Under the pieces are notes generated by a model, which worked only from the letters and a program-made list of their open reading frames with translations, ran no database searches and was not told the DNA's origin. A stretch of DNA of 64,000 nucleotides from Escherichia phage dw-ec. The DNA lies in the sequence record OL739525.1; one strand, given 5' to 3'. The translations under genes were made by a program, and so were the position numbers. This document shows, piece after piece, positions 1 to 54,287 of the stretch; position 1 is the first letter of the stretch, and each line of letters starts with the position of its first letter.

Positions 1-211
1 AGGTTAAACACCCAAGCAGACGCCGCAATATCAGCACCAACAGAAACACAAAGACACCGACAACTTTCTTGTCACGGTAGGCGATGATCTGGCTAAACAC
101 CCAAATCTGAAACTGAACGAAGTACAATGAATGTAGACAAGAAAGTTGTCGGTGTCTTTGTGACTTGCCTGTCGCTGCTGATCTTGCGGCGTCTGCTTGG
201 GTGTTTAACCT
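1..211. repeat. large imperfect palindrome (arms about 75 bp, spacer about 62 nt)
   Basis: 1-28 is the exact reverse complement of 184-211; 49-73 is the exact reverse complement of 136-160; arms diverge at 29-48 vs 161-183. Confidence 0.8.
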
Positions 212-4208: not shown

Positions 4209-4646
4209 ATGTTTAAAGTTAATGCTGTTTACTGTTTCAAAAGTAAAGCTGCCTGTGAAGCTTTCTCTATGATCTCTGATGAAAATTTCAAAATGGCAGC
4301 TTTGATTGAAGGGTCTTGTTTCCGCGTCGAAAATGTTAGTGAATCGGGGTCTGTTTGCTCATTGACTTTATTGGACAGTGGAGATATTATTGAAGCTGGA
4401 CAGTATCCGTTCAGGAGTTGGGAGATATTGTTAGCTCGCGGAGAGCGTAACTTTTTTATGTGCGTGTCTGCGGGGGAAGCTGTGAAAGAAACTAAGGATG
4501 TTTCTGTTTACAATTCTGAATTTATAAGTTATAGTGAGTATCAACATCTGGAAGGCATTGTTGGTCACTTGTTATCTCTGATTGACATTGAATGTGACCT
4601 GCCTGAATCATTGAAAGAAGAGTTGAAAGCATTAGATCTGCTGTAA
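4209..4646 (+). CDS. hypothetical protein, tandem paralog family C member 3
   Basis: N-terminus MFKVNAVYCFKS resembles 3280 and 3741 genes. Confidence 0.5.
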   Translation: MFKVNAVYCFKSKAACEAFSMISDENFKMAALIEGSCFRVENVSESGSVCSLTLLDSGDIIEAGQYPFRSWEILLARGERNFFMCVSAGEAVKETKDVSVYNSEFISYSEYQHLEGIVGHLLSLIDIECDLPESLKEELKALDLL

Positions 4647-4673: not shown

Positions 4674-4973
4674 ATGAATCTGACCGAACAGTTACGCCGT
4701 ATTGCAAAAGAAGCTTCCTTCAACTTCCCTGTTGAAGAAGTGATCGAGACATGTTTTGCTGAAGCACGAGCGGGAAACTCTTCAAGAAATTTCACGCCAT
4801 CCGATTTTGGTCTGAATAATTCTCCCACCCACCCAGAGCAGATCTACAATCAGGTGAAGTGGATGGATGAAGCAGTAGCAATTCTTCGTGAGCGTGGGCT
4901 TATTGTTTATAAAGAAATGGATCTGAACGGGGCATACGAGTGGATCACTATTGATTGGTCCGAGGTGAAATAA
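4674..4973 (+). CDS. hypothetical protein
   Basis: ORF with RBS aaaggagaataagATG. Confidence 0.5.
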   Translation: MNLTEQLRRIAKEASFNFPVEEVIETCFAEARAGNSSRNFTPSDFGLNNSPTHPEQIYNQVKWMDEAVAILRERGLIVYKEMDLNGAYEWITIDWSEVK

Positions 4974-5206
4974 TGAAAGGTAACAAGATGAAAGTTAATC
5001 AAGTGCCGAGCGCATACACTTTGTGGCTTGCGCGAGCATTACACCAGACGATCAAAAACCCTAAGAAGCCAATGAAGAGCGGGAAGAAGTTTATGTCTAA
5101 GGGCAAAACAACCTTTGGCTTCACTCGTATGTCTGTCAAGATGAAAAGGCTGGGGTACAAGCCAAACTACGCTCGTTACCCTTCTGAATACAACTGGTTT
5201 GACTAA
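4973..5206 (+). CDS. hypothetical basic protein
   Basis: ATG at 4973 after RBS gaggtg, overlapping upstream stop (TAATG); Lys/Arg-rich. Confidence 0.4.
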   Translation: MKGNKMKVNQVPSAYTLWLARALHQTIKNPKKPMKSGKKFMSKGKTTFGFTRMSVKMKRLGYKPNYARYPSEYNWFD

Positions 5207-10497: not shown

Positions 10498-10526
10498 CAT
10501 CTCATCGAAACAGAGAGGAGAAAATC

Positions 10527-10940
10527 ATGAAAAAGTTTATTTGCACCCGTTCCACTAACAGTGATATCCTTGTAGGTAAGGTTATCAAAGGAGAACTCTT
10601 CCATGCAAACGGTAAGAAATATATTCTGCTGAAAGATTCTTTCAACGGGGAATATCCGCGCTGCACTTTCTTCAATTACAATACTCCATTTGCTTTAGAA
10701 GGAGATGCTTGGGACTGGGCTGAACTTCATCCTTGTTGTGAGGAAGAAGAATCTATGTTCTTAGGTTTAAACGTTTACCGTGTAGATTACACCATGTGCG
10801 GAGCGGAATATTCTGTTCGCGTAGAAGCCGAATCCAAACTACAAGCACCTTTCAAGGCGGGATTGACTTTGGGTCATTGTTTGGCAAACATTGAAGATGT
10901 TGTGATCCAAAGAGTTGTTTTAGAGAAAGAGGCTATTTGA
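10527..10940 (+). CDS. hypothetical protein
   Basis: RBS agagaggag; promoter upstream. Confidence 0.55.
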   Translation: MKKFICTRSTNSDILVGKVIKGELFHANGKKYILLKDSFNGEYPRCTFFNYNTPFALEGDAWDWAELHPCCEEEESMFLGLNVYRVDYTMCGAEYSVRVEAESKLQAPFKAGLTLGHCLANIEDVVIQRVVLEKEAI

Positions 10941-10965
10941 CAGAAGACGGTACAATATTTAAAAT
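10937..10965 (+). promoter_or_regulatory. sigma70-like promoter (TTGACA, 17 bp spacer, TAAAAT)
   Basis: TTGACA at 10937-10942, TAAAAT at 10960-10965. Confidence 0.5.
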
Positions 10966-10992
10966 ATAAAGATTAACCACAAAGGAGAGAAT

Positions 10993-11292
10993 ATGCAAGT
11001 TGAAGACCTGATCCACATTCTGAATAAAGCTAAAGAGAAGGGTGCTATCAAAGACTGGAAACGTGAAACAAGTGAAGATTTATCTCATTGTTGCCGAGAA
11101 TTTTACATCGAAGGTATTGCTGACGATCATTATACTATTGAATGGTATATCAACTTAATGACTCTTAAGCACGGTTCATTTGAGGTTTGGTTTGATGATA
11201 TTGATGTAAATGGTTTCCATCCTGGCTATAAAATCGCTATGCAGTTATCTTATCGTAGAGAAGTTGTAGCACATTTGGGTTTACATAACTAA
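10993..11292 (+). CDS. hypothetical protein
   Basis: RBS aaaggagag. Confidence 0.5.
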   Translation: MQVEDLIHILNKAKEKGAIKDWKRETSEDLSHCCREFYIEGIADDHYTIEWYINLMTLKHGSFEVWFDDIDVNGFHPGYKIAMQLSYRREVVAHLGLHN

Positions 11293-11302
11293 GGAGAAAA
11301 GA

Positions 11303-11626
11303 ATGCAAGCAGTTGTTAACGAAGCTATTATGAACTTATCCTTCTTGTTAGCTGGTTTAGGAGGTGTCCTCATAGGTTTGGCTCTTATCTGGTGTATTCG
11401 TCGATTAATCGGGTACCGACAAAAAGGTGTTTCATGTTTTGTATCTTATAATTTTACAACTGCTTACAGCAATGAGGTGGGATCTGGTAACGCTCAAGCA
11501 TTTTTACCAACATATCCTCCTACAGTGGAAGATATTCGAAACTTGGAAGTAGAACTTATGGGACTAAGTGATAATTATACATCTCTCGTTATTCAAAATA
11601 TTTTTCGACTAAAACAGGAGGCGTGA
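11303..11626 (+). CDS. hypothetical membrane protein
   Basis: RBS aaggagaaaag; hydrophobic segment LSFLLAGLGGVLIGLALIWCI. Confidence 0.5.
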   Translation: MQAVVNEAIMNLSFLLAGLGGVLIGLALIWCIRRLIGYRQKGVSCFVSYNFTTAYSNEVGSGNAQAFLPTYPPTVEDIRNLEVELMGLSDNYTSLVIQNIFRLKQEA

Positions 11627-11839
11627 ATGAAGGCACATTACCCTCATCCCTTTGATCCTAAAAACAAAGCCGTAATTCTTCGTCAGTGGCAACGGGTTTG
11701 TCGTACTAAATGTCCAATTAATAGCCCACACAATGTAGACAAGGATTATCTTGGGACATTTGTTGAATACACTTACATAGACAAAAACAAGCGTAAACAA
11801 CATGTCGAGGAATACTGCTTAAGAGTAGAATGGCTGTAA
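11627..11839 (+). CDS. hypothetical protein
   Basis: RBS acaggagg; Cys/His-containing small protein. Confidence 0.45.
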   Translation: MKAHYPHPFDPKNKAVILRQWQRVCRTKCPINSPHNVDKDYLGTFVEYTYIDKNKRKQHVEEYCLRVEWL

Positions 11840-11851
11840 ATAATAAATACC

Positions 11852-11880
11852 TTGACAAGTGTTTATTCATTTTGTAAAGT
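11852..11880 (+). promoter_or_regulatory. sigma70-like promoter
   Basis: TTGACA at 11852-11857, TAAAGT at 11875-11880. Confidence 0.45.
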
Positions 11881-11909
11881 GAGAATACAGCAATGGTTTA
11901 GGAGTGGTT

Positions 11910-12581
11910 ATGAAAAAGTTTGTTGTTTACAGTCGTCTTTCTAAACAGAAAAAAGGCGAGGCACAATATGGTATGGAGAGCCAAGAGAACGATATCCGTT
12001 ACTTCTTAGACTCTGTGCCTGATGCGGAAGTTATTGGTCAATTTTCTGAATACTATTCGGGTAAGGGCGATTGGAAGCAACGTAAGGAACTGGTTAAAGC
12101 GGTTGAAATGTGTAAAGCTACCGGAGCAACTTTATTGGTAGCTAAAGTTGACCGCTTGGGTCGTAACAACGCCTCCGTAGCAACTCTTCTAGAAATGATC
12201 GATGTTAAGATAGCCATTATGCCAGATGCAGATAAAATGGTTATACAGCTTCTGTCTGTTCTGGCTGAACAAGAGGTTAGAGGTATTGCTGATCGTATTA
12301 AAAAGGGTCTTGCTGTAGCAAAAAGCAAAGGTGTTTTATTAGGCAGTGCTAATCCTAAAACTGCCGCTGCACGTAGAAAAGGAAAAATGGAATACAACTC
12401 TGTTAAAGCAGACGCTTTTGCAGAGACATTTCGTGAACGTTTGGAGATCCTTAGAGATTTAAATACACCTTACAAAACTATTGCTGAAAAATTCAATAGT
12501 AAGAAAATAGCAACAGCACGTGGTGGTAAATGGGATGCTAAAACTGTTTCTCGTTTGTGTGCCAGACTGAACATTAAATAG
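11910..12581 (+). CDS. small serine recombinase (resolvase/invertase family)
   Basis: N-terminal catalytic motifs VVYSRLSKQ and VAKVDRLGRN typical of resolvase-type serine recombinases; basic C-terminal tail; RBS aggagtgg. Confidence 0.65.
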   Translation: MKKFVVYSRLSKQKKGEAQYGMESQENDIRYFLDSVPDAEVIGQFSEYYSGKGDWKQRKELVKAVEMCKATGATLLVAKVDRLGRNNASVATLLEMIDVKIAIMPDADKMVIQLLSVLAEQEVRGIADRIKKGLAVAKSKGVLLGSANPKTAAARRKGKMEYNSVKADAFAETFRERLEILRDLNTPYKTIAEKFNSKKIATARGGKWDAKTVSRLCARLNIK

Positions 12582-12589
12582 GAGAGGAT

Positions 12590-13012
12590 ATGAAACAAGA
12601 AAATGAATCTGTAGATCACTTAATCATGCTGTCAGCCCTTTTTGCCGGATGGGACGTATTTTTTGAAAATTTGTTCAATTCTGCTACAGATGGTTCCGAT
12701 TTTATGCGCCAGTTTAAACGACGAACTGTTGAGGACTATGCTTTCTATTCAGGTCGGATTGAAAAAGGTTACGAAGATACAAATACAACACTCACTATTA
12801 AAGTTTTAGATGTGATGTTTAGTGTTATAGATGCTATCGACGAAAGCCTTCCGATCCTAGACAATTGTAATACGAAAGCCTATGTTTACAAAATAGCTCG
12901 TGCTTATGTGTCTGCAAACAGTTGTCTTCTTTCCACCCAGATTGCCGTGAACAATCTTGCCAACTTGTTTGATGAAGGAGAAACTTTTTATGACAATCGA
13001 TTTGAAGTGTAA
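12590..13012 (+). CDS. hypothetical protein
   Basis: RBS ggagaggatATG. Confidence 0.45.
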   Translation: MKQENESVDHLIMLSALFAGWDVFFENLFNSATDGSDFMRQFKRRTVEDYAFYSGRIEKGYEDTNTTLTIKVLDVMFSVIDAIDESLPILDNCNTKAYVYKIARAYVSANSCLLSTQIAVNNLANLFDEGETFYDNRFEV

Positions 13013-13355
13013 GAGGATTCTTTTAGATTTCTATAATAATTGGTTAGAACACCTCCGTCTCTTTCCAAGAGAAAGTGGTTACGCTGATGTTGGCTTATGC
13101 CGAGGTCTGCGTATGTATATAAGTGATGAATTTCGGGCAGAGCATTCTTTAGCATATTCTGTTTATGGTATGCAATTAGCCAGTTTTGAAAACGCTGGCT
13201 TAGATACAACTTTCCCATTTAACACAGCAAAATCTTTTGAGCAAGAGTGTAAGGAAAAACGTTGTATGTTTAATGAAAAACGTGTACAGTGGGTTAAGGA
13301 TCGAGTTAAACAACTGGAACAAGAGTTGGATTTCTTCTATGATGAGGCAGAATAA
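12990..13355 (+). CDS. hypothetical protein, paralog family A member 7
   Basis: family A motifs (FYNNWL, GLCRGL, PFN, CMFN..RVQWVKDRV); start taken at internal ATG 12990. Confidence 0.55.
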   Translation: MTIDLKCKRILLDFYNNWLEHLRLFPRESGYADVGLCRGLRMYISDEFRAEHSLAYSVYGMQLASFENAGLDTTFPFNTAKSFEQECKEKRCMFNEKRVQWVKDRVKQLEQELDFFYDEAE

Positions 13356-13627
13356 TGGATAGACAAACCTTAAAAACAATGGCAGATGCTACTAATTCCC
13401 CGTACTTTGAAAAAGTAAGTAAGTTGGTAGCTCAAGCCGCAGAGGAAGGATATTATAACATAAACATCCACAACCCAAGTCTTATACTAGAAATGCCAAG
13501 TGATAAGAAGATACAAGAAAGTATCTGCGAAGGTATTGTTAGTTACTGGCGCGAGCGTGGGTGTGGTGCAAACATGGCTTTAGACAGTGCAAACATTGTA
13601 AGATATATAAATATTTCTTGGGGGTGA
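13355..13627 (+). CDS. hypothetical protein
   Basis: ORF overlapping upstream stop. Confidence 0.4.
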   Translation: MDRQTLKTMADATNSPYFEKVSKLVAQAAEEGYYNINIHNPSLILEMPSDKKIQESICEGIVSYWRERGCGANMALDSANIVRYINISWG

Positions 13628-13631
13628 TTTT

Positions 13632-14243
13632 ATGATTCAATGCACTCATATCCAAATTACTTGGAGAGATGAACTTTACCATTTGGGACAATTTACTGTA
13701 GGGGAGACATACCCTGTCATTAAACATAATCCTAACATCGCAAACTTTGATAGGATGGTTCTTGTTGAGGACGATCTGGGTCAAACTTATTCTTTAGATC
13801 TAAAATATCCGTTTTCTTACGGCTACGATTGGATCGTTACTTTTGAAGACGTGGAGGAAAATAAAACAATGAACGAAAAAAATTCTTGGTATTATCGTTG
13901 TGAACTGCCGCCAGTAGGTGAAAAGGTTATCTTTGTTCCTGATTTGGAAAGATATTCTTGGGACAGTTCTTATTCTGTTCCTAAAGAAGGCACCGAAGTT
14001 GAAGTTATTGCACATCGCACGACTTCGCATGGTAACGATGTAGCAGTTGTTTTCTGGGATGATGAAGGCGCTGCTTGTGCAGGTGGCTTTGTTGCAGGTA
14101 ACTTTGAACCCCTGCCAGATCCTTTGAAGGAGGCAATTTTAGGCGTAGCTTCTTTTGGACTCTCTTACACGTCTGCACAGGAGATCGTAGAAGGTATTTT
14201 AAACGGTACTGTTCCAAACGAAATTTTCAAACAGATTAAATAA
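13632..14243 (+). CDS. hypothetical protein
   Basis: ORF with RBS gggggtgattttATG. Confidence 0.5.
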   Translation: MIQCTHIQITWRDELYHLGQFTVGETYPVIKHNPNIANFDRMVLVEDDLGQTYSLDLKYPFSYGYDWIVTFEDVEENKTMNEKNSWYYRCELPPVGEKVIFVPDLERYSWDSSYSVPKEGTEVEVIAHRTTSHGNDVAVVFWDDEGAACAGGFVAGNFEPLPDPLKEAILGVASFGLSYTSAQEIVEGILNGTVPNEIFKQIK

Positions 14244-14258
14244 CAGTTGCACCCCGTT

Positions 14259-14283
14259 CTGCGGGGTGTTATTGTATATGTAA
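14259..14283 (+). terminator. putative weak intrinsic terminator
   Basis: hairpin caccccg/cggggtg followed by TTATT. Confidence 0.35.
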
Positions 14284-14294
14284 AGGAGGCGCTA

Positions 14295-14633
14295 ATGTAT
14301 TACACTGAAGACTACATATTGTATAACTTTTTTAAAGGTTGGTTGAAATGGGCGGAACAAGCTCCTGTCGGAGATTGTGTTTTTCCTTGGGATTCTCGTC
14401 AAGGCTTGTGTCGTTGTTTGGAAGATTGGCTTATAACCACAAACTACAATTCAGAAACTAAGAAATCTACATCAAACAGATTAAAAATGTTGTTTGAAGA
14501 AGATGGTTTAGATCCAATTTATCCTTTCGGTGAGGAAAGTTTCCACAATGGTCTTTTCCTTGGCACTCAACATTATGATAAAGATCGTGTAGATTGGGTA
14601 AAAGAAAAGGTAGCACAGTATGAATGGGGTTAA
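14295..14633 (+). CDS. hypothetical protein, paralog family A member 8
   Basis: RBS aaaggagg then ATG at 14295; motifs FFKGWL, GLCRCL, PFG, RVDWVKEKV. Confidence 0.55.
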   Translation: MYYTEDYILYNFFKGWLKWAEQAPVGDCVFPWDSRQGLCRCLEDWLITTNYNSETKKSTSNRLKMLFEEDGLDPIYPFGEESFHNGLFLGTQHYDKDRVDWVKEKVAQYEWG

Positions 14634-18752: not shown

Positions 18753-18775
18753 AACCCGCTTCGGCGGGTTTTTTC
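18753..18775 (+). terminator. intrinsic (rho-independent) terminator
   Basis: hairpin aacccgc-ttcg-gcgggtt followed by TTTTT. Confidence 0.75.
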
Positions 18776-23483: not shown

Positions 23484-23508
23484 CAATAAAAAACCCGCCG
23501 AAGCGGGT
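23484..23508 (-). terminator. intrinsic terminator (minus strand)
   Basis: hairpin acccgcttcggcgggt followed on the minus strand by TTTTTATT. Confidence 0.6.
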
Positions 23509-23517
23509 TATTATTTA

Positions 23518-54064: not shown

Positions 54065-54250
54065 ATGATTAGTGAGAATCCGTGCAAATGGCATCATGTG
54101 CCTATTAAAGATTGTATGTCTTGTAATCCACGTTCTATTTATAACATTGCATCTTATGATGATGACAATGTGTTAGACGATGATGAAGGCTGGGAGGATT
54201 TGGATTGGACTGGTTATGAAACCAAAAAGGATAAAATTATTCCTAGTTGA
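54065..54250 (+). CDS. hypothetical protein
   Basis: RBS aatggaggtgtgcaATG. Confidence 0.45.
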   Translation: MISENPCKWHHVPIKDCMSCNPRSIYNIASYDDDNVLDDDEGWEDLDWTGYETKKDKIIPS

Positions 54251-54287
54251 CTTAAGATATCCTTCGTGCTAAACTAGAAGTGAGGAG

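Follow-up and report, generated by a model that had tools for sequence, protein, structure and literature searches.

A small serine recombinase with a predicted integrase-type DNA-binding domain in the lytic Escherichia phage dw-ec

The recombinase gene and its predicted product

A stretch of 64,000 nucleotides from Escherichia phage dw-ec (sequence record OL739525.1), referred to below as the window, carries a gene for a small serine recombinase. The gene is preceded by a TTGACA promoter-like site and forms part of a long plus-strand block of small, early-type genes (Table 1). The original prediction, made from the letters of the DNA alone, had described the product as a serine recombinase of the resolvase or invertase type and had suggested that it could drive an inversion switch, resolve replication dimers or be the remnant of a mobile cassette. 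The genome, which had been called virulent-looking, proved to be that of a virulent-type myovirus, a lytic, phAPEC8-like Phapecoctavirus of about 150 kb in the Stephanstirmvirinae. Over window positions 10500-14500 the identity was 100% with Escherichia phage ETEC-TG (OR786310.1; Phapecoctavirus, 149,880 bp) and 96-98.5% with about 60 other phAPEC8-like phages; between the window and ETEC-TG the offsets drifted and certain stretches differed.

Table 1. Features of the recombinase locus in window coordinates
Feature	Position	Strand	Basis and remarks
Serine recombinase gene	11910-12581	+	223 aa and stop; Pfam, PHROGs and PDB matches; ETEC-TG CDS0081, 'DNA invertase'
Catalytic domain and long E-helix	11910-12344	+	aa 1-145, helix 109-139; PF00239, AlphaFold2, Foldseek
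YSRLSKQ motif	11928-11948	+	aa 7-13; read from sequence
Ser11 codon, predicted nucleophile	11940-11942	+	equivalent to gamma-delta resolvase Ser10; invariant in 45 relatives
VAKVDRLGRN motif	12138-12167	+	aa 77-86; D81, R82, R85
C-terminal basic helical region, predicted DNA-binding domain	12345-12578	+	aa 146-223; variable linker and recombinase-type HTH (IAEKFN..TARGGKW..TVSRL)
Ribosome-binding site AGGAG	11900-11904	+	5 nt ahead of ATG; from sequence
Sigma-70-like promoter candidate	11852-11880	+	TTGACA, 17 nt, TAAAGT; 10/12 matches; function inferred
Imperfect palindrome AATAAATACCTTGACAAGTGTTTATT	11845-11870		centred on -35 hexamer; weak candidate operator or site

The catalytic domain was matched by the Pfam Resolvase family (PF00239, residues 5-142, E=5.2e-18; score 66 bits, cut-off 23.3) and by PHROG 125, 'DNA invertase' (2.6e-32). 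The nearest solved structures by sequence were the Tn3 and gamma-delta resolvases, which gave the best single-sequence matches in the PDB, and also Sin and Gin. The best PDB profile match was Gin (E=1.8e-17), the single-sequence match to Gin being distant (E=0.006). The AlphaFold2 model (mean pLDDT 88) had the catalytic alpha/beta fold, a 31-residue E-helix and a C-terminal region of five helices, and its Foldseek matches were to the catalytic domains of Sin, gamma-delta, TP901-1 and Bxb1.

Both catalytic motifs named in the original prediction were present, and Y7, R9, S11, Q25, R58, D81, R82 and R85 were invariant in an alignment of 45 relatives that extended down to about 31% identity, so that the catalytic serine was retained throughout. 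The sequence alignment of the PDB hits equated D81, R82 and R85 with gamma-delta D67, R68 and R71, and R58 with R45, the latter with the help of textbook knowledge. From motif position and textbook knowledge, Y7, R9 and S11 are taken to correspond to gamma-delta Y6, R8 and S10. The protein is accordingly described here as a predicted intact small serine recombinase with Ser11 as its putative nucleophile. As had been claimed, it is not a large serine integrase: it has 223 residues and no zinc-ribbon domain was detected in it.

The last 78 residues were basic, with 19 lysines and arginines against 8 aspartates and glutamates. This part of the original description held, but the resemblance to the C-terminus of resolvases and invertases did not extend to the type of helix-turn-helix (HTH). 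In the domain search that had been proposed for this region, PF07508 gave a weak match (residues 187-216, E=0.003, covering only positions 19-48 of the 102-position model) and HTH_7 (PF02796) gave none at E<=1. When the C-terminal 78-110 residues of 31 relatives were searched, 27 matched PF07508, 10 matched HTH_62 (PF20552) and one matched HTH_7 (E=0.13), and a profile of the region aligned to residues 206-244 of SPbeta SprA/YokA. The NCBIfam matches were all far below threshold (YneB-like, XisF, Mpi and CcrB). The HTH is predicted from these profiles to be of the type that opens the 'recombinase domain' of large serine integrases and not the HTH_7 of resolvases, and the label 'resolvase/invertase-type' needs qualifying for the C-terminal domain.

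The Tn3, gamma-delta and Sin resolvases and the Gin and Hin invertases belong to the same size class (about 185-225 residues) and have the same catalytic domain, E-helix and catalytic residues, and the same chemistry is expected for the window protein. It differs from them in several respects, 1) the identity is only about 20-25%, 2) the C-terminal domain has about 75 residues instead of about 45 and is not HTH_7, 3) there is an insertion after the serine motif (YSRLSKQKKGEAQYGMESQ) and 4) neither an adjoining site of the res or gix/hix type nor an invertible segment was found here. With the large serine integrases (Bxb1, phiC31, TP901-1, SPbeta SprA and A118) it shares the HTH motif IA..LN..G..T.RG..W....V.R, which matches the first part of PF07508, and the Foldseek alignment to Bxb1 integrase ran over 259 columns. 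However, the protein has less than half the length of these enzymes (400-700 residues), has no zinc-ribbon match and is too short to hold the coiled coil that governs att-site directionality. The IS607-type enzymes have an N-terminal MerR-like HTH and a C-terminal catalytic domain, the reverse of the order in the window protein, where the catalytic domain begins at residue 5.

The start of the gene was placed at 11910 and not at the GTG at 11904 because the homologues also begin with MKKF, the N-termini of the aligned relatives being M-K-K-F/Y in every case. The promoter that the original prediction had assigned to the gene was found at exactly the positions given for it, but 'consensus' was an overstatement, since a perfect -35 hexamer is combined with a -10 hexamer that matches at only 4 of 6 positions. 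Between 9000 and 16000 there were 23 promoter-like sites compared with 19.5 +/- 4.4 in shuffled sequences, which is no excess. The promoter-like segment was kept upstream of the gene in phiWec179 and L015, where the outer flanks were unrelated to those of the window. It was absent upstream of P0002 and P0003, orthologues with 78-81% identity that lie inside operons with no promoter-sized gap ahead of them.

Relatives, selection and exchange of the DNA-binding domain

The recombinase protein was at least 99% identical in 62 phage records. Identity was 57% in Justusliebigvirus (phi92-like phages) and 52-55% in the relatives from Klebsiella; the Vibrio and Shewanella myoviruses reached 35-38% and ICP1 30%, the gene being found in some ICP1 isolates only, within a variable island. 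A comparison of organism counts indicated that about 106 of the approximately 108 Escherichia records matching segments of the subfamily genome also carry the gene, which is near-universal in E. coli Stephanstirmvirinae. GenBank records give it as a 'serine recombinase', a 'resolvase', a 'DNA invertase', a 'hypothetical protein' or a 'methionine ABC transporter ATP-binding protein'. The ABC-transporter label, as 'methionine' or 'putative ABC transporter ATP-binding protein', was attached to a 99.6-100% identical protein in many phapecoctavirus records, among them phAPEC8_ev052, 118_SA_NWU and tuntematon; this error of annotation has spread from record to record and conceals a site-specific recombinase.

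Beyond these phages, proteins of about 220 residues form a large, uncharacterised clade of which the window protein is a member; the clade is represented in prophages, satellite-like elements and very small plasmids as well as in phages. The clade comprised 2,542 clusters at E<=1e-10 among 1.84 billion representatives, of which hundreds were full-length, with 215-245 residues and 35-42% identity. Proteins annotated as 'recombinase family protein' with the same layout (PF00239 with PF07508/HTH_62, about 215-245 residues) were 35-57% identical over their full length, for example those of Marinovum pMaD11, Klebsiella pIIIF7SW-P1_2 and phi92 (gp052). Full-length homologues at 35-40% identity, with PF00239 and PF07508/HTH_62, were present on 124 PLSDB plasmids, 104 of them non-mobilizable and several just 5.8-7.3 kb in size. 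The small plasmid pMaD11 carried the recombinase, RepA, a ParA-like protein and three hypothetical proteins. Plasmid members of the clade have large non-coding regions right upstream, some with dyads, whereas the phage gene does not. Directly upstream of the recombinase of Klebsiella plasmid pIIIF7SW-P1_2, a strong dyad was found at 4323-4356 (TATCATTTGTTTGCCG-AA-CGGCAAATTTATGATA), and in a Synechococcus plasmid the corresponding place was occupied by another strong dyad at 4794-4857, with 16-bp perfect arms (CTTGTAACACCCTCAA, 32 nt, TTGAGGGTGTTACAAG) and a third copy, TGTTACAC, between them. Both dyads are candidate crossover or operator sites for the clade.

The surroundings of the other relatives were varied. 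Two adjoined primase or primase/helicase-like genes, and one of these elements also had a separate tyrosine integrase. In some viral contigs the relative stood alongside tyrosine integrase, RecT-like and exonuclease genes. Prophage relatives lay near tail-end or integrase modules, in one case with a separate large serine integrase. When 1,120 neighbouring open reading frames (ORFs) were clustered, the best neighbour family occurred in only 12 of 80 IMG/VR loci, and no conserved partner gene emerged.

Sequence divergence points to strong selection on the gene. Within the gene, phage WPEC1 differed from the window at 12 synonymous and no nonsynonymous positions, and in the comparison with phiWec179 the catalytic domain (codons 1-145) had a dN/dS of 0.03. 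The C-terminal part behaved differently in the same comparison, with a pN of 0.45 and a dN/dS of 0.80. Two C-terminal alleles were recognised, type A in the window, P0002 and P0003 and type B in phiWec179, L015 and P0006, and the catalytic domain was about 96% identical across them. In phiWec179 the homology was confined to window positions 11842-12343, both flanks being unrelated, and a type B C-terminus was fused near residue 148 to a catalytic domain nearly identical to that of the window; the DNA-binding module therefore appears to have been exchanged between lineages. Judged from these alignments, the C-terminal domain either evolves fast or was swapped.

The same comparisons bear on whether the gene serves the phage at all. 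It could be a horizontally exchanged accessory ('moron') or selfish gene from plasmids or prophages, with no or only a marginal role in the phage. The genomic position varies between genera, the close orthologues have unrelated neighbours, the homology to phiWec179 is limited to 11842-12343 with unrelated flanks, no neighbour was conserved in the 80 viral loci, and relatives abound on plasmids and in prophages. We nevertheless regard this explanation as improbable. A gene of this kind would not be expected to be near-universal among the E. coli members of its subfamily, with invariant catalytic residues and the selection described above; moreover, no terminal repeats or target duplications flank it, and a lone serine recombinase without linked sites would be unable to mobilise itself. 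As regards the mobile-cassette remnant of the original prediction, the gene has changed place between genera with none of its flanks conserved, but it is not decaying.

The inversion-switch question

The original prediction had proposed a search of the full genome for inverted-repeat sites flanking an invertible segment. A self-comparison of the complete ETEC-TG genome for inverted repeats of at least about 18 bp returned only GC-rich copies of terminator hairpins and one AT-rich palindrome, and the repeat scan of the window agreed, its inverted repeats being terminator hairpins only. A perfect 22-bp inverted pair at 18753-18774 and 23488-23509, 4.7 kb apart, bracketed a Sir2/methyltransferase block, and a third copy lay outside the window at ETEC-TG 147449-147468. 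The pair was rejected as a recombination site; its sequence, AACCCGCTTCGGCGGGTT (AACCCGCTTCGGCGGGTTTTTT), is a rho-independent terminator hairpin with three intergenic copies. An AT-rich near-palindrome of 34 bp, AATAATTATTAAATATTAATAATAAATAATTATT, lies at 54231-54264, in a large divergent intergenic region between a minus-strand block and the plus-strand tRNA/structural block, and could be an origin or a regulatory element.

Inversion polymorphism was surveyed with seven megablast queries that tiled the whole genome and were run against 50,697 phage records. About 60 close relatives were colinear in every segment of the approximately 150 kb, the tail-fibre module included, and two match places per record appeared only where the ends of a record cut a query. 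Variation in the tail fibres was due to cassette replacement and not to inversion. The sole non-colinear records were those of WPEC1 (PV659873.1), WPEC2, WPEC4 and WPEC6, which have 155-161 kb and differ in arrangement from all other phapecoctaviruses. WPEC1 has a replication block in inverted orientation, fused to the early region, and its exonuclease gene abuts the tape-measure gene. These were not accepted as genuine rearrangements; they look like scaffolds concatenated in arbitrary order.

A DNA invertase that drives a programmed switch elsewhere in the genome, whether of tail fibre, host range or promoter, would fit the term 'DNA invertase' used by PHROG 125 and several GenBank records, the profile match to Gin, the location of one Pseudomonas prophage relative near tail-type genes and a weak full-length match to the Mpi-type master invertase NF009949, although this last reached only 22.6 bits against a cut-off of 272. 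The reading is disfavoured because appreciable switching should show both orientations among 60 independent assemblies, and none but terminator hairpins were available as inverted-repeat pairs. In addition, HTH_7 was not found, and no convincing inverted repeats lay near the prophage relatives. An invertase is consequently considered very unlikely. The original prediction had counted the lack of recombination sites and of any sign of inversion or resolution as evidence against itself, and such a lack was found for inversion only.

Several other observations concern the neighbouring genes and the ends of the records. Two small early proteins near the recombinase, encoded at 12990-13352 and 14295-14630, are paralogous (31% identity, E=2e-9) and both carry W..W...GLC..L...YPFG...R..WVK motifs; the phiWec179 gene just downstream of the recombinase (4684-5013) appeared by eye to be a third member of the family. 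Window positions 1-211 were unmatched among the approximately 60 related phage records listed, whose matches begin at 212 or later, and form a nested palindrome with arms at 1-43/169-211 and 47-73/136-162. What we take to be Oxford Nanopore barcode 01 (AAGAAAGTTGTCGGTGTCTTTGTG) occurs at 139-162, with its reverse complement at 47-70 and the flank GCTTGGGTGTTTAACC. This segment is in all likelihood adapter left untrimmed where the source assembly begins, and not phage DNA. Many independent phapecoctavirus records (ESCO5, ESCO37, Schickermooser, Ro121lw, BI-EHEC, 3A1_SA_NWU and ABPW7) start within about 212-465, as does the phage part of the window, and this clustering may reflect a physical genome end or a common linearisation convention. 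The 'circular' ETEC-TG record has an identical 111-bp sequence at 1-111 and 149770-149880, probably an overlap that the assembler produced and that was not removed before deposition.

Proposed role and significance

The reading preferred here, to which we assign a probability of only about 0.3, is that the enzyme carries out a resolvase-type reaction at one short, putative site per phage genome. The recombinase may be made early from its own sigma-70-type promoter, a step held with low confidence. By analogy with textbook chemistry, dimers would bind a short dyad-like site and two sites would synapse in a tetramer. Ser11 would then cut all four strands, giving 5'-phosphoseryl links and 2-nt overhangs, half of the tetramer would rotate by 180 degrees and the strands would be rejoined. 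This strand-exchange chemistry can be stated with confidence from what is established for the serine recombinase family. The outcome would be deletion or resolution at a single short site in the genome, again a low-confidence step, by which multimeric circular replicative forms would be converted to monomers; no invertase role in a tail-fibre or promoter switch is envisaged. A non-inverting reaction is favoured because the inverted repeats found were those of terminators and about 60 genomes are colinear. A relative that stands alone on a minimal replicon would most simply be a multimer-resolution enzyme, and the resolution of replication dimers is the reading that appears most compatible with where the relatives occur. 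Cre/loxP of phage P1 offers an analogy of role only. Cre separates dimeric circles into monomers and is able to circularise DNA with terminal redundancy, but it belongs to the tyrosine recombinases, the P1 prophage is a plasmid and loxP adjoins cre.

A number of results weigh against this proposal. No recombination site was found in the phage genome. Classical resolvase and invertase genes adjoin their sites, and here the DNA upstream was unrelated among the 67-81% identical orthologues P0003, P0002 and P0006. When the upstream regions of six orthologues were aligned, the only conserved part was the promoter-like segment shared with phiWec179 and L015. The best dyad in the 160 bp upstream was the 26-bp palindrome at the -35 hexamer, which matched at 9 of 12 arm positions, a chance level, and whose right arm was not conserved in phiWec179. 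Dyads were not enriched upstream of 74 viral relatives compared with 522 control genes (p=0.17). In Justusliebigvirus and Klebsiella phage FBKp34 the gene lay in another block, from PhoH to a NinI-like phosphatase, with different small neighbours. Phapecoctavirus DNA was not found as a plasmid or prophage in any of 5,426 complete E. coli genomes, and for a lytic phage that packages from concatemers there is no obvious need for multimer resolution. The fast-evolving or swapped C-terminus fits better with a changing, possibly non-self target than with a fixed site in the phage's own genome. A literature search found no functional study of, or experiment on, the gene or any member of its clade.

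Other candidate sites were also considered. A res-like site upstream was rejected, since the upstream regions of the six orthologues were not conserved. An internal palindrome at 12398-12425 was attributed to chance because it is conserved in neither P0002 nor P0003. A genome-wide dyad scan (12-bp arms, spacers of 0-10) gave 105 matches compared with about 52 in shuffled sequences, most of them terminators, and no two dyads had a common half-site.

The palindrome upstream of the gene also bears on the possibility that the protein no longer recombines DNA and serves instead as a DNA-binding regulator, such as a repressor of an early promoter. Weak as it is, the palindrome overlaps the gene's own -35 hexamer, and resolvases commonly autoregulate. 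A pure regulator seems hardly credible in view of the full catalytic set, which is invariant even in the most distant of the aligned relatives, and of the catalytic domain being the most constrained part of the protein.

Alternatively, the enzyme may act on DNA that is not the phage's own, such as the host chromosome, resident prophages, satellites or plasmids, in the service of host takeover, counter-defence or the occasional integration or carriage behind a 'persistent' state. Consistent with this are the early placement of the gene, the absence of any detectable site or rearrangement in the phage genome, the two swapped DNA-binding alleles on a nearly constant catalytic domain and the accessory status of the gene in ICP1, which carries it in a variable island and is engaged in an arms race with satellites. 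A preprint that searched assemblies of E. coli isolates for 'persistent' virulent phages retains the Phapecoctavirus/Justusliebigvirus cluster in its set, with 19/55 called temperate by BACPHLIP (bioRxiv 10.1101/2024.12.31.630880). Small serine recombinases can, moreover, integrate phages: phiRSM Int (ORF14), which matched the family profile with an hhalign probability of 98.8%, inserts a filamentous phage into tRNA-Ser, a proven role other than resolution (PMC3816273).

Against this stand the lack of integrated or episomal phapecoctavirus sequence in the E. coli genomes cited above, the failure to identify a candidate host site and the absence of a match in a PADLOC defence search of the recombinase. 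In addition, phiRSM Int lies outside the clade, in the canonical resolvase/invertase group; it matches PF00239 with 157 bits, has a short, weakly HTH_7-like HTH (E=0.046), lacks the TARGGKW insertion and comes from a temperate inovirus. The case for a target in other DNA is wholly circumstantial, and we consider it doubtful. Its stronger form, in which a lytic family keeps a core early recombinase whose target lies outside its own genome and which, for takeover or counter-defence, rearranges or excises host, prophage, satellite or plasmid DNA, or else supports the 'persistent' carriage of these phages, is unlikely; if true, the two swapped DNA-binding alleles would record retargeting.

Phapecoctaviruses and phi92-like phages have repeatedly been proposed for phage therapy and biocontrol, for which safety screens require the absence of integrases and recombinases. 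Papers on these phages state that they have no recombinase (PMC5374246, PMC10269720), and elsewhere a 'resolvase for concatemers' was guessed for them (PMC10282059). We suspect that the gene may also be the reason for which some of these phages are classed as temperate by lifestyle predictors, and we argue that it is neither an integrase of a known kind nor a host-range switch. Its swappable, modular DNA-binding domain could interest genome engineers, and the gene opens a way into a very large and unstudied group of compact serine recombinases. A lytic, therapy-relevant phage family conserves a site-specific recombinase that is widely mis-annotated.

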